Source of the DNA: Escherichia coli | Lineage (GTDB): Bacteria > Pseudomonadota > Gammaproteobacteria > Enterobacterales > Enterobacteriaceae | NCBI RefSeq assembly: GCF_030384885.1 | Contig: NZ_CP128613.1 | Direction: 5' to 3' (one strand) | Length of the DNA: 64,000 nt | Shown: in pieces, positions 1,530 to 62,116 of the stretch | How the letters are laid out: each line of letters starts with the position of its first letter | How positions within the stretch are numbered: position 1 is the first letter of the stretch | Program-made: the position numbers and the translations under genes | Notes under the pieces: model-generated | Database searches by the model: none | What the model saw: the letters and a program-made list of their open reading frames with translations, nothing else | What the model was told of the DNA's origin: nothing

Positions 1530-1702
1530 CAAGTTCTTTTGCGTTGCATTGCTGGCGTAAATGTCAGCAATGCAGCATTTCCTCACGATTCTTCTTTGAC
1601 GATCGCACTTTTTGCTCGTTATGATGGCGTCGCTAGCCTCAGTAAATCCTTACTCCGGCGGTGCGCAACCTGTGCGCGTGAACCACTATCTGAATGCTCA
1701 TC

Positions 1703-2637: not shown

Positions 2638-2820
2638 GTAGGCAGGATAAGGCGTTTACGCCGCATCAGGCATTCGGAGCACGATGCCTGATGCGATGCT
2701 TGCGCATCTTATCAGGCCTACAAACGTGACGCGTCCGTAGGCAGGATAAGGCGTTCACGCCGCATCCGGCATTCGGTGCACGATGCCTGATGCGATGCTT
2801 CTATTTGCATCAGGCATCCA
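2638..2820. repeat. REP/BIME cluster (at least two REP units) between convergent pbpG and dld
   Basis: Duplicated ggcaggataaggcgtt(t/c)acgccgcatc(a/c)ggcattcgg...gatgcctgatgcgatgctt units. Confidence 0.85.
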
Positions 2821-20982: not shown

Positions 20983-22071
20983 TCACGGCAGGCGGTGGCG
21001 AGCTTGATAATAAGCCTGCCAGTGAGCTTCTTTATGTGTAGCGACACGCTGTTCGAAGTAACGGCGCAGACGTGCGCGATCTTCTTCGTTATCTTTGACG
21101 ATGGTTCCGGCAATACAGTCTACCAGGTCGGCAGGCTCCCCAGCGCGATTCGCTAAAAACCAGGCGCGGAAACCCACGGCGTGTGCTACGTTAACGGCTT
21201 CAGCGGTGGACATAATCGCTGTAAGGGTATCCATTGAGGTTTTCTTTTCGCCGTTGGCACGCAGATCGCGGAAGGTGCGGACCAGTAACTCCAGTACCGC
21301 GTCAGGCACTTTATGCGGAATACCGCTATGGGCCAGCAAACGTGCCGAAGCGCTGGCGACAAGCTCCAGCTCCTGGGCGAAATCCATAATCGGAAAGACA
21401 GTTTCAAAATCGAAGCGACGCTTGAGTGCGGCACTCATTTCATTGACGCCGCGATCGCGGGTATTGGCAGTAGCAATAATATTAAAGCCTTCCCGCGCAT
21501 AGAGCTGACTGGCTTCACCAGTGAGTTCCGGCACCGTCATAACCCTGTCAGAAAGCATACCTAACAGACAGTCTTGTACTTCCAGTGGTGTACGCGTTAT
21601 CTCTTCAAAACGGACAATTTTGCCGTCGCGCATTCCCTGGTAGAGCGGGGCAGGGACCAGCGCTTCCGTTGACGGACCATGGTTGATAAGCAGGGCGTAG
21701 TTCCAGCCGTACTTGATTTGATCTTCGGTGGTAGATGCGCCGCCCTGGATGGTTAACCCGGCATCGCCGCTAATAGCGGTTGCCAGTAATTCAGACAGGA
21801 GCGATTTTGCGGTGCCAGGTTCCCCCACCAACATCAAACCGCGCCCGGTAGCGAGAGTGACTAACATGCGTTCGACAGCGGAGGGGCTAATCACGACTTT
21901 ACGGCTAATATTTTGTGCTTCGTCGCCAAGGATAAAAACACGGGCCGCAGGCAAACTTAACTGCCAACCGGGCGGGCAAGGTGCGTGATCATTTTGTTTT
22001 AATTTTGCCAGTTCATCGGCGTATAACACAGCGGCAGGCGGACGCTGCAGATGATTATTCTGCGGTGACAT
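20983..22071 (-). CDS. yehL: MoxR-type AAA+ ATPase YehL
   Basis: 362 aa beginning MSPQNNHLQRPPAAV; Walker A GEPGTAKS; CbbQ/NorQ-like. Confidence 0.9.
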   Translation of the reverse strand: MSPQNNHLQRPPAAVLYADELAKLKQNDHAPCPPGWQLSLPAARVFILGDEAQNISRKVVISPSAVERMLVTLATGRGLMLVGEPGTAKSLLSELLATAISGDAGLTIQGGASTTEDQIKYGWNYALLINHGPSTEALVPAPLYQGMRDGKIVRFEEITRTPLEVQDCLLGMLSDRVMTVPELTGEASQLYAREGFNIIATANTRDRGVNEMSAALKRRFDFETVFPIMDFAQELELVASASARLLAHSGIPHKVPDAVLELLVRTFRDLRANGEKKTSMDTLTAIMSTAEAVNVAHAVGFRAWFLANRAGEPADLVDCIAGTIVKDNEEDRARLRRYFEQRVATHKEAHWQAYYQARHRLP

Positions 22072-22182
22072 ATATTCATCCCTGAAATGTATTAATGAAA
22101 TAAACGATATTTTACGCGCAATAAATGTTTGGCGCATTAGTTGTTTGAGCGGAAAATATCTGGAAAGCAGATCACAGTAAAT

Positions 22183-22265
22183 AAAAAAACCTGCTGGTGA
22201 GGCAGGTTCTTTTATTTACTACTTTCAGGCCTAACACCACGGCCTGTGCAACATCGTGTTCCAAC
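22183..22265 (-). ncRNA. orzO: OrzO-like type I antitoxin sRNA (boundaries estimated)
   Basis: Minus-strand -35 TTGCAA (22295-22300), 17-nt spacer, -10 TATAAT (rc of 22272-22277); intrinsic terminator at 22182-22214; 5' ~20 nt (rc of 22246-22265) complementary to toxin 5'UTR 22412-22431 with one mismatch. Confidence 0.6.
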
Positions 22266-22271
22266 GAACGA

Positions 22272-22322
22272 ATTATAACCATCGGTGGACCCCGTTGCAA
22301 TTAAGATAATGAGATTTATAAT
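22272..22322. promoter_or_regulatory. Divergent overlapping sigma70 promoters for the antitoxin sRNA (-) and the toxin mRNA (+)
   Basis: Palindromic TTGCAA serves as -35 on both strands; + strand -10 TATAAT at 22317-22322 places the TSS near 22330. Confidence 0.55.
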
Positions 22323-22503
22323 CCTGACTGTTGGGACGTTGCGCCGGATCGAACCCATTTCAAGTCCTGGCTACCGGACGGGTGGTGCCGCAGGTAGTGC
22401 CCTGATCCGGAGTGCAACATCGTGGTCCAACATACGTAAACCAGTATCGACAGGCAGTGTAAGGGTAAGATGCTGGTGTTGCGCTCCTTAATAAGGAGAG
22501 CGG

Positions 22504-22593
22504 ATGGACACGCTGACACAAAAGTTAACCGTGCTCATTGCCGTACTGGAGTTATTAGTGGCTCTGTTACGGCTGATTGATTTGTTGAAGTAA
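22504..22593 (+). CDS. zorO: Type I toxin, ZorO-like 29-aa hydrophobic peptide
   Basis: ATG at 22504 preceded by SD AAGGAG; translates to MDTLTQKLTVLIAVLELLVALLRLIDLLK; ~174-nt 5'UTR; recognised from memory as ZorO/ZorP family (which paralog is uncertain). Confidence 0.75.
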   Translation: MDTLTQKLTVLIAVLELLVALLRLIDLLK

Positions 22594-22616
22594 CGGGCAA
22601 ATTGAAACGCATCTAA

Positions 22617-22641
22617 GGGGGAAAATACCGCTTCCCCCTTT
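22617..22641 (+). terminator. Hairpin terminator downstream of the toxin ORF
   Basis: gggggaa-aataccgc-ttccccc stem-loop followed by a U-rich tract. Confidence 0.5.
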
Positions 22642-22759: not shown

Positions 22760-22972
22760 GCGAAAAATATCTGGAAACCAGATCGCGGAAAATAAAAAAA
22801 CCTGCTGGTGAGGCAGGTTCTTTTATTTACTACTTTGACGATAACTTGCTGATTGTGCAACATTTCGTACCAACGAGTAAATTATAACCATATCCACACT
22901 CCATTGCAATTCAGTGAGTGAGATTTATAATCCTGCCCCTTGGGAGGTTGTGCCGGATCGGACCAATTTGAA
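22760..22972. repeat. Copy 2 of the repeat; truncated toxin-antitoxin unit with no toxin ORF
   Basis: Homology to copy 1 ends about 15 nt before the yehK stop codon; terminator and both promoters conserved. Confidence 0.85.
22793..22876 (-). ncRNA. Second Orz-like sRNA gene (OrzP-like), apparently orphan
   Basis: Minus-strand -10 (rc of attata 22882-22887) and -35 ttgcaa 22904-22909; terminator at 22793-22825; 5' pairing region diverged (gtgcaacatttcgtaccaac). Confidence 0.5.
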
Positions 22973-22986
22973 TTATTTAGAGTATA

Positions 22987-23304
22987 TTATTCTATTTCTT
23001 GGTTGAATATGTTCTGTAGTTCACGATTAAAAATGGCTATTACCGTTTCTGGTGATTCACCTCGTAATTTTCGCTCATCAATAAATTCATCTCTTATATA
23101 AATCAACGCATCATTTATTAGCGGGTCGGCATCTTCTCCATCACGTTGATGAAATGTTGGACGTAGCCGGAATCGTTCCTGTCGATAGACGGAACCTGTA
23201 AATAATTCAGAGCATTTATGGATCTCAAGTCTGAAGGAAAACGGATCTTCAGGTACAGGGACTTCATAATCATAAGTAGCGACCAGCTCTTTTTGCACGA
23301 TCAT
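22987..23304 (-). CDS. yehK: Uncharacterised protein YehK (105 aa)
   Basis: 105-aa ORF 60 nt downstream of yehI on the same strand. Confidence 0.8.
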   Translation of the reverse strand: MIVQKELVATYDYEVPVPEDPFSFRLEIHKCSELFTGSVYRQERFRLRPTFHQRDGEDADPLINDALIYIRDEFIDERKLRGESPETVIAIFNRELQNIFNQEIE

Positions 23305-23364
23305 CGCTTTTCCCGGTGGTAAGTCGTGTTGATAACGGGCAGTCGCATCACTGCCCGCTGTGTT

Positions 23365-26300
23365 TTAATGGAAAATGACGTCAGGTGCGCTTAACGCTTC
23401 ACTCAAATCAAACGTATCGAGTTCGGCAAAAGTGACAGATTTATTGTCACGGTACACTCGAAGAGAACGGAAGCTCATTAGCGCTTTGCTATCAGCACTG
23501 TAGTGGTTAAAACCGGGTGAAAACTTAAGGACCAGCCGATACTCGCCCAGGTCATAGACACATGCGTCCTCAAAACCTGACTCCCAGCCTTTGTATCGCA
23601 TTCCCATAAGTTGCCCAACGGTTGCGGATTTACCTTCCCAGCGAGTCAGGCTGTTACTGGCTGACTCGTCAGGTGTGAGCAGCACTGTGCGCCGCATCAA
23701 CTGGCGAAAAGGCGGCATAATTTCGTAATCGGCAAAAACCTGTGCAAATTCACTGCGCATTTCTGCTGTCATTTCTAACGGGTGGGCAATGCCAATCAGA
23801 GCATCCGCAGGCAGGTCAATTGGCTCATCTTGTGCGTTGCAGAACTCCCTCTCAGCGGCCACACGAAAGGCGTTAAGTAAACGACGCGGTTCATTTGCCG
23901 GATAAACCGCCCATATTAATCGCTGAGTAACCAGGCGAGTAAAGGGATGATTAACAAACAGAGAATGAAAATCTGCCAGCGACCAGCGTCGAGTGGTGCG
24001 TAGGGCAGTTTCAAGACGCGGGAGCAGGTTTTTGCTCACCTGAGTGGCATCTTTTTTTAGCCCTTTTAGTCGGGCCAGTGCCTCGGGTGCTTTCAGCTGA
24101 TCGTCATCGGCGCGCAACCGGGGAACACTTTTCTGGCGAACGTTTTGCTGATCAAAGATAACCGGGTTGAGGTTTTCATCGAAGCGAACGGTAAACTGCC
24201 GGGGTCCAAAATCAAATATCAACGCCTGCGGATCATCCAGGCCCAGTGTTGGGACTAATCTGTCCGCTAACTCTTCCTGGCTTAGTCCACGATTTTCTGC
24301 GACCACCTGAAGAAATTCCGCCGCGTTATCACGTAAGGGACGGGATTTCGCCCGTTGCGATATATGATGCAGCTGTATCAGCGCCATATCATTATTCATC
24401 AGGGTAAGTATATTCAGACCACTGACAGCACGGGCAGATTTGCCCTCTTGAGGCCAGGCAAGGATCTGTGTCGTCAGATCCCGTGCCGTGCTTTCGTCGC
24501 CAAAGAGACTTAACGCCAGAAATGCCCAGTTGTCTTTTGCGGGAGCACCAGCTTGTTGCCACGCGGTGAAAAGATCCCAGGCAAAAGCGGCCAGCGTTTG
24601 TGGCTGGCAGAACGTTTTCAGTTGTTCCAGCCCGCAATAAAAACGTCCGCCCTGGGTAAAGCGCAGCATTTCGCCAATAATTTCCAGAGCGTCATCAGTA
24701 ACAGGTTGATTATTCGTGATAAGTCTCGGTCTGGACCACATTGTCGGATGCCAGAAATCAGGAGCTTTTGGAATGCGTGTTGGGTAAATCTCTATTGGAC
24801 TCTGTTTAAGTAATTGATCCAGGGCAGGCCATACATCTGTACGCTGCCAGCGGTTTGCCACGGTTTGCAGTAATTCGCCATGCCCTTGTTCATACAGTAA
24901 ACGCAGAGCGCTGAGTGCCGCTTCGCTGTTATCGCCAGACCTGGCAAAGATTAATGGGATCAGCGCCGTAGCCGTATGCTCCGGCCATTGTAAAATCCAC
25001 TGGCGAGCCAGATTACGCTGGCCCGCAAAACGATGCCAGACGCGGGCAACGGGCAGCGCCAGTTCTGTTGCGCCAAAATGAATCAGCAGCGGAAATATCT
25101 CTTTGGGATGTCGGGCAAAGGCGGTGATTAATCCGGGCAAAGCATCGGTACCCAGGACACTTAACAGATATTCTACCCCGGTGTAATGAAAATCAGCCGC
25201 AACAATTTGTTGCCAGCACGATACCGCCATTTCGCGCGGCATCTGCGCGATAAGGTACAGATTCCACACTCCCCAACGCTTTTCATCAGTGTAATTAAAT
25301 TTGCGTTGGAAAGTTCGCCACCCCTCCATCAACGCAACGCTATCTTGTGCCAGTAATGCGCTGGCGGCCTCTTCCCGGTAGTGTTTATTTTCAGTCTGTT
25401 TTGCCTGATAATTGAGCAATCTTCCTAATGAAGTATGTGTCTCTAGTTGATCGGTATCCAGAGCATCCAACTGTCCTGTGAGAATAAACTCATTAAACTT
25501 CCACCTGTGATCTTCAAAACCTAATTCCCGCAAGAAGGTATCTGCCCCTCTGCTTACGAGACGTTCGTCAAAAGACATGGCGCTAAAATGGTCAATTGCA
25601 GTTTGCTGTTCCGGCGTCCAGTGTTTATTCGGCGACCTATACGCTTGCGGTACAAGCGTAAGTTCAGGTAGCGAAAAGTGAGTTATGGAAGTCTTTTTCC
25701 TGCCACGCCATGGTGGTGAAACGAGGATTTCAGGCAGACTGCTGTTATCGGTGCTATCAATAACCGGTTTTGGCGATGCCGATAAATAACTATTCACCAC
25801 TGCCCGGGCTTGAGTACTTAACCACGGGATCACCTCTTCTGCCAGTTGTGGCTGCGATGCCATCAGCGTTTGTAACAGCGTACGCCAGTATTCATCACGT
25901 GCTTTTTGCTGTGCAGGCAGCTTTTTGTCTTCGATGATAGGATAACCAGGGCGCGTAGGGGGGGCTTTTAACGCCAGTAGTTCTGCCAGTGCGGCGAGCG
26001 TCGCATGGGGAAAGTTTTTACTGTATTTAGCCACACGCTGCAGGCTGGGTTTGTTTTTATCGGCAACTAACAGCAAGATGCGAATAATTTGCGGATGGTT
26101 AATTTGTACCAGCAGGCTACCGCAATCTTCTTTATGGGCATACATTGCCAGGTGTGGAATGGCTGCCAGTCCTTGTTCGCGCAAAAGGGCAGCGCAGGCC
26201 GCGTAGCCGAAGTGGTTTTCATGCGACATGTAGCTGGCTTCCCGATCGCTAAATATATCCTGGCTCCAGTAGCGTTCGAGTTTTTTCACCGCTCTGGGGT

Positions 26301-45574: not shown

Positions 45575-45667
45575 TTTCACAACGTTATTGTAATCCCGCC
45601 GTTTTTCCTCGTTTACAACGTGTGCGCGGGACATTACCATCCATCTCTGCGATTCATCATCGCAACC

Positions 45668-45790
45668 AAACGACTCGGGGTGCCCTTCTGCGTGAAGGCT
45701 GAGAAATACCCGTATCACCTGATCTGGATAATGCCAGCGTAGGGAAGTCACAGACCACCAGGTCATTGCTTCTTCACGTTATGGCAGGAG
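45668..45790 (+). ncRNA. TPP (thi-box) riboswitch in the thiM leader
   Basis: cgactcggggtgcccttctgcgtgaaggctgagaaatacccgtatcacctgatctggataatgccagcgtagggaagtc matches the thiM TPP aptamer; expression platform runs to the SD of thiM. Confidence 0.9.
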
Positions 45791-61945: not shown

Positions 61946-62032
61946 AAAAAATAAGCCCGTGTAAGGGAGATTACACAGGCTAAGGAGGTGGTTCCTGGTA
62001 CAGCTAGCATTTTATGGGTTATGTTTTTCAGC
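61946..62032 (-). ncRNA. cyaR: CyaR (RyeE) Hfq-dependent sRNA
   Basis: Minus strand reads GCTGAAAAACATAACCCATAAAATGCTAGCTGTACCAGGAACCACCTCCTTAGCCTGTGTAATCTCCCTTACACGGGCTTATTTTTT, matching CyaR including its terminator, as recalled. Confidence 0.9.
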
Positions 62033-62116
62033 GAAACGGATGATAACCTTAATAAATGCAGCTGTATGTGATCGGTTTCTAAGAATTTTCCATCCGGGAA
62101 AAATAATCGAAATTAA

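Follow-up and report, generated by a model that had tools for sequence, protein, structure and literature searches.

The window analysed here, a 64,000-nucleotide stretch of Escherichia coli DNA, is a 100% match to E. coli 2013C-4282 (NZ_CP027579.1), the genome on which genome-wide statements rest. The minus-strand genes yehL and yehK are separated by a 915 bp spacer that holds two copies of a repeat and carries no RefSeq annotation; beyond yehK lies yehI, a DUF4132 gene in RefSeq. Copy 1 (about 22149-22640) contains a zor/orz type I toxin-antitoxin unit in full, and copy 2 (22760-22972) is a second unit in which the sRNA gene is kept and the toxin ORF is absent. In alignment the copies are 94% identical over 22760-22836 versus 22149-22225 and 77% identical over 22854-22972 versus 22245-22363. 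The features of the locus are as follows.

20983-22071, minus strand: yehL (RefSeq annotation)
22183-22265, minus strand: copy 1 Orz sRNA, OrzP type (V1 = ACG), cognate antitoxin of the surviving toxin (Rfam and pairing)
22330-22593, plus strand: copy 1 zor toxin mRNA, a 174-nt 5' UTR followed by a 29-aa ORF
22794-22874, minus strand: orphan Orz sRNA gene, OrzO type, 81 nt (Rfam and comparison with O157 OrzO)
22819-22794, minus strand: terminator of the orphan, a 12-bp hairpin with a U7 tail (sequence and fold)
22855-22874, minus strand: 5' pairing region of the orphan (sequence)
22881-22909, minus strand: orz promoter, -10 TATAAT at 22886-22881, 17-nt spacer, -35 TTGCAA at 22909-22904 (promoter scan)
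22904-22931, plus strand: retained zorO promoter, -35 TTGCAA at 22904-22909, 16-nt spacer, -10 TATAAT at 22926-22931 (promoter scan)
22939-22969, plus strand: remnant of the zorO 5' UTR, +1 to +31 (alignment to the Z1323CEC0014 allele)
22987-23304, minus strand: yehK, 105 aa, the antisense target of any transcript from the retained promoter (ORF list and RefSeq annotation)

Both sRNAs and the zor toxin are missing from the annotation of the 2013C-4282 RefSeq record, and the complete zor/orz unit is likewise unannotated in the other E. coli records inspected. Naming the sRNAs and the toxin is useful because RefSeq leaves them unannotated, and its importance beyond annotation is small. Elsewhere in the window, Rfam matches above the gathering score were a CyaR/RyeE sRNA (61949-62034, minus strand), a TPP riboswitch (45666-45762, plus strand), naRNA4 (2641-2718, plus strand) and the Peptidase-S11 RNA motif (1618-1698, plus strand).

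Copy 1 has a divergent promoter pair and is matched over the full OrzO-P model of Rfam (RF02083; 22183-22258, minus strand, 98.9 bits, model 1-76/76, gathering score 60). Its sRNA pairs at 19 of 20 nt with the Orz target site in the zor 5' UTR (22412-22431), with a dG of -34.4 kcal/mol, and its toxin ORF (22504-22593) encodes the 29-aa peptide MDTLTQKLTVLIAVLELLVALLRLIDLLK. This is the only zor gene in NZ_CP027579.1, and control of the remaining toxin would fall to the OrzP-type sRNA of copy 1. The two published sRNA types are told apart by the V1 triplet, ACG in OrzP and GAA in OrzO (Wen et al., PMC3919570). In O157 the yehL-proximal unit combines a toxin beginning MDS (ZorP) with an ACG sRNA and the yehK-proximal unit a toxin beginning MDT (ZorO) with a GAA sRNA, the ZorP/ZorO difference being T3S. 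By name the surviving unit is a hybrid: its sRNA and target site are OrzP-type, but its protein, with T at residue 3, has the ZorO sequence.

Rfam RF02083 also matches copy 2 over its full length (22794-22867, minus strand, 90.6 bits, model 1-76/76), in agreement with the initial annotation, which had recognised an orphan Orz-like sRNA gene that keeps its terminator and promoter. The 5' end, placed from the position of the -10 element and the 18-nt 5' pairing described in PMC3919570, reads GUUGGUACGAAAUGUUGCAC with V1 = GAA. In its 20-nt pairing region the orphan does not differ from O157 OrzO, and over the full sRNA only 3 of 81 nt are different, all in the linker and none in the seed or terminator. 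It is also predicted to fold as O157 OrzO does, leaving the 5' end free and forming a 12-bp terminator; at the sequence level it has the sigma-70 promoter and intrinsic terminator of its own that the OrzO-P family requires for an RNA of ~80-85 nt. Judged by its sequence, the orphan is an OrzO orthologue without its cognate zorO, not a decayed copy. The pairing region had been described as diverged from the toxin UTR, and the strings quoted for it are exact; the implied decay does not hold, since identity to O157 OrzO makes the divergence an ordinary difference of O/P specificity. That the orphan lacks a cognate target follows from the single zor gene in the genome together with the lack of any zorO-type target site within 3 mismatches in the 64-kb window.

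Comparison with strains carrying the tandem zorO-orzO/zorP-orzP locus, a check that the initial annotation had put forward, revealed a clean deletion: relative to the O157:H7 tandem, K-12 and Z1323CEC0014, copy 2 equals the yehK-proximal unit with exactly 325 bp taken out. Its junction falls between 22969 and 22970, with ...GGACCAATTT on its left and GAATTATTTAGAG... on its right; the right flank in Z1323CEC0014, the closest full-length allele, is GCGACTT followed by GAATTATTTAGAG and matches exactly. The breakpoints have only a TT microhomology in common. The deletion took out the zorO UTR from +32 together with the Orz target site, the 29-codon ORF and the terminator of zorO, and it joined +31 of the zorO 5' UTR to a point 17 nt before the yehK stop codon (22987-22989). 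Repeat homology, which had been described as ending ~15 nt before that codon, indeed extends to 22972, slightly past the true junction. No 29-aa Zor ORF follows copy 2, as already noted from the ORF list, and the retained UTR measures 31 nt, or 29-31 nt allowing for the TT microhomology. At the sequence level the OrzO sRNA gene, its promoter and its terminator were left intact and the toxin-side promoter survived. Copy 2 is very probably an intact orphan OrzO gene whose zorO was lost by a 325-bp deletion, which has no action on the remaining toxin and whose stranded toxin promoter is a weak by-product.

The orphan orz promoter is identical to the O157 orzO promoter. Both OrzO and OrzP have been detected in EDL933 (PMC2887945), and the orphan OrzPmg of MG1655 was detected by northern blot in the work of Shore, Ptacek, Steen & Fozo (2024, mSystems; PMC11264685). 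Furthermore, the MG1655 Term-seq supplement of Adams (2021) lists OrzPmg 3' ends at 2204446 and 2204485 on the plus strand. By analogy, the orphan OrzO is probably still transcribed. The MG1655 end at 2204485 is the OrzPmg terminator, and the upstream end at 2204446 would yield a ~45-nt 5' fragment containing the seed. In the deletion alleles, MG1655 among them, the orphan orz lies on the yehK strand directly 3' of yehK (22794-22989, minus strand), its terminator is the first terminator past yehK, and a yehK read-through mRNA would have the Orz sequence in its 3' UTR.

An intact antitoxin beside a surviving toxin could serve as a second, back-up repressor. Against the surviving zorP-type UTR the orphan can pair at 16 of 20 positions in the arrangement 5(2)2(2)9, which includes the first 5 nt of the sRNA and a longest contiguous run of 9, and the duplex has a predicted dG of -24.4 kcal/mol, compared with -34.4 kcal/mol for the cognate pair. 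However, the V1 specificity triplet is mismatched, and repression has been found to need at least 15 contiguous or at least 17 discontinuous pairs (Wen et al., PMC3919570), a level that the orphan does not reach on the sole zor mRNA. The published tests behind this threshold comprised designed mutants and the reciprocal pair, and neither a 5(2)11 mutant with 16 pairs nor OrzP acting on zorO gave repression (PMC3919570). The pairing open to the orphan is weaker than that of such non-repressing mutants. By these pairing rules the orphan should be unable to repress the remaining zorP-type toxin, in line with the earlier suspicion that it may pair poorly with that mRNA, and a back-up role is improbable. 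The O/P specificity of these sRNAs means that an orphan OrzO would be unable to back up the neighbouring unit.

The distribution of the allele was followed in 5,426 complete E. coli genomes, among which 3,397 carry at least one zor gene and 5,232 an orz region. An orzP-only remnant of the K-12/B type with the same junction, recognised by 84% identity to the copy 2 query, is present in about 1,830 of the 5,426 (about a third of E. coli), a share that agrees with the published figure of about 30%. An OrzO-type orphan with this junction was found in only eight: 2013C-4282, 2020CK-00188, VCSW5, HCP5S3_I2, LCP30S3_I5, AST215, MB53 and C41. Sequence divergence among these loci is about 3-5%, and the unit upstream of the orphan varies, being zorP-type in most and of a third type in VCSW5.

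Tandem repeats of ~610 bp can collapse in short-read assemblies, and the truncation of copy 2 might accordingly hide a complete second toxin gene. The census leaves this reading with a negligible probability: the identical junction recurs in 8 independent complete genomes of different lineages with different upstream partners and in about 1,800 K-12/B-type genomes including MG1655, and a collapse would drop a whole unit, not 325 bp ending in unique flanking sequence. The concern that a corrected assembly would restore a second toxin ORF can thus be dismissed, and the loss of zorO is taken as a true deletion.

The K-12-type and OrzO-type orphans have identical breakpoints. As these share only a 2-nt microhomology, it is simplest, and likely, that one deletion occurred and was afterwards transferred between orz types by recombination, a reading that falls short of proof. 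A T in GAATTATTTAGAG was considered as a private SNP that would establish single origin and was rejected, the same T being present in the full-locus strain Z1323CEC0014. It is also possible that the K-12 type arose from the 1.5-copy type by unequal crossover, but the exchange would have to fall within about 20-25 nt, and crossover in the longer identical terminator stretch would give OrzO-only single loci, none of which was seen in the census. The locus is recombinationally plastic in other strains: O157:H7 Gim1-1 carries one hybrid unit made of the orzP side and the zorO 3' flank, the array of MB53 has 2.5 copies, and in VCSW5 the OrzO orphan stands beside a unit with a third type of pairing region (CTGCAACATGGCATCTCAAC), which may be the published zorQ/orzQ. 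Evidently the antitoxin of a type I pair can outlast its toxin.

Persistence of the antitoxin raises the question of whether it is kept for a purpose of its own, and Shore et al. suggest for OrzPmg a target in trans beyond toxin repression (PMC11264685). The intact gene, promoter and terminator in 2013C-4282 would suit such a role for the OrzO orphan, as would the finding that orphan orzP is widespread, conserved and expressed (PMC11264685). However, no target is known, OrzO orphans are rare (8/5,426), and they evolve at about the rate of their neighbours: nucleotide diversity among seven orphan alleles is 0.053 for orz and 0.060 for yehK. Two alleles have seed substitutions, and the terminator stem or U-tract is changed in those of AST215, C41 and HCP5S3. 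With n = 7 there is no sign of special constraint on the orphan orz, some orphans may be decaying rather than maintained, and retention through an acquired trans target is unlikely.

The deletion also stranded the toxin promoter. The promoter scan confirmed the toxin-side elements that the initial annotation had placed at 22904-22909 and 22926-22931, pointing into yehK, although the count from the scan as a whole (4 found against 3.4 expected) is not above chance. The copy 2 promoters are credible because they are orthologous to EDL933 promoters mapped by primer extension, where the z3289/zorO start was determined (PMC2887945; PMC3919570), and because their hexamers are invariant in all seven orphan alleles compared. 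The start site (+1) was set 174 nt before the ATG, as in PMC5397157. The orz and zorO promoters have one palindromic -35 (TTGCAA) in common, and in orz promoter numbering the toxin -10 covers -52 to -57. With the -35 shared and the -10 within the orz promoter zone, survival of the toxin promoter needs no selection for toxin-side transcription. Its retention is in part forced by this interlocking, and it probably persists largely because its -35 belongs to both promoters and its -10 occupies the UP-element zone of orz.

Since the promoter is intact and the toxin terminator is deleted, a transcript from it would enter yehK as an untranslated antisense RNA without a terminator of its own. The initial annotation had this transcript continue through yehK into yehI, which is only a prediction from sequence. 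Its arrival at yehI is doubtful in view of a C-rich, G-poor stretch of the plus strand before yehI (23059-23118) and of a plus-strand GC hairpin (CGGGCAGTCGCATCACTGCCCG) with the T-rich sequence CTGTGTTTTA behind it. The hairpin and this sequence occupy 23336-23367, past the yehK start and just before the yehI stop codon, in the orientation of a terminator for the strand opposite to yehK and yehI. The hairpin is conserved, whatever the zor content, in the 10 loci whose spacer was recovered (none was in locus L015); for this reason the candidate at 23336-23357 was rejected as a terminator specific to deletion alleles. Candidate small ORFs on the antisense transcript were rejected as well, the GTG at 22950 lying only 2 nt after GGGAGG and the others starting before or at the predicted +1.

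Might this RNA nevertheless be a functional cis-antisense regulator, tuning yehK within the yehI-yehK-yehL... transcript by interference or RNase III cleavage? Of the 12 hexamer positions 10 fit the consensus, and the hexamers are those of the promoter mapped in EDL933 and do not vary among orphan alleles; with the toxin terminator gone, nothing halts the transcript before yehK, and in about a third of E. coli the remnant has become fixed. The invariance, however, is explained by overlap with the orz promoter through the common -35. Furthermore, the +1 at 22939 is a C in 2013C-4282 and a G in O157 and the other orphans, a change found among the orphan alleles compared only in 2013C-4282 and 2020CK-00188. 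It leaves 22936-22941 entirely pyrimidine in the 2013C-4282 lineage and should weaken or shift initiation. MG1655 has this remnant too, its predicted start lying at about 2204337 on the minus strand, and there the Term-seq data (few conditions and called peaks only) have no minus-strand 3' end between about 2.193 and 2.2117 Mb, which is weak negative evidence against an antisense transcript. A literature search on yehK, yehL and antisense found no mention of a yehK antisense RNA. In E. coli, antisense RNAs that are not translated usually end by the action of Rho. The predicted transcript would most likely be weak and short-lived, stopped by Rho or at the yehK-yehI hairpin, and a regulatory function for it is unlikely. 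The yehK gene is annotated as frameshifted or with an internal stop in S1-KEN-05-A, TUM13066 and AST215, and damage in several strains suggests that it is dispensable.

Beside the preferred account of the stranded promoter as a weak by-product stands a more speculative proposal, which has only a small chance of being right. The terminator-less toxin promoter of every deletion allele (this strain, K-12 and B) could fire a Rho-limited antisense RNA into yehK, in which case loss of the toxin would have rewired the yehI-yehK-yehL... cluster or, by competition for the shared -35, the orz promoter, and the 1.5-copy allele with an OrzO orphan could be a surviving intermediate between the tandem and the K-12 state. 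As far as sequence can tell, the antisense-yehK idea is reasonable and of modest importance. The locus illustrates how a toxin promoter can end up stranded and aimed into a neighbouring gene, and the antisense idea is cheaply testable on existing K-12 data since MG1655 has the same junction.

Among the closest known systems is the zorO-orzO/zorP-orzP tandem of O157:H7 EDL933 (Fozo 2010; Wen 2014, 2017). Copy 1 resembles a unit of that tandem in its 174-nt UTR, 29-aa toxin and ~83-nt sRNA and likewise has divergent promoters with a -35 in common. Copy 2 corresponds by orthology to the orzO side, whose seed, promoter and terminator it shares, and differs in that zorO is gone from +32 onward. The 31 nt retained are roughly the 28-nt leader that processing normally removes from zorO mRNA; the likeness is taken to be fortuitous, or to reflect how much sequence must stay if the orz promoter region is to be preserved. 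More distantly, tisB/istR-1 and shoB/ohsC share with zor/orz an sRNA that is divergent from its toxin and pairs with a long 5' UTR, but they are different families; the Rfam ohsC match to copy 2 is sub-threshold (28.5 bits against a cut-off of 50), and antitoxin-only shoB/ohsC is very rare, reported from two strains (PMC11264685).

Toxin-less orz loci have been described before. According to PMC11264685, orz-only loci that keep 27-29 nt of the UTR are found in about 30% of E. coli, and 1.5 copies of zor/orz occur in 6 of 2,212 assemblies; 2013C-4282 was not found among the 1.5-copy assemblies listed in the available part of the supplement. Copy 2 shares with these loci the yehK-yehL site, an intact orz with promoter and terminator, and 27-31 nt of zor UTR with neither a toxin ORF nor an Orz target site (PMC11264685). 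Its junction sequence is identical to that of MG1655 (OrzPmg), where the K-12 orz is itself identical to the O157 yehL-proximal copy, matching the published equivalence of OrzPmg and OrzP (PMC11264685). One full unit with an extra orz corresponds to the published 1.5-copy class, and the locus is a member of the orz-only/1.5-copy class, correctly read as a known, rare class of allele. It differs in that published orz-only loci are 96% OrzP-like and stand alone, whereas the orphan here is OrzO-like and adjoins an intact zorP-type unit (PMC11264685). In addition, the available text of that paper does not discuss that the toxin promoter now points antisense into yehK, or how the deletion came about. 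Added here are the subtype (an OrzO orphan beside a zorP-type unit), the exact 325 bp deletion with its TT microhomology, the account of interlocked promoters, the G-to-C change at +1 and the census numbers.
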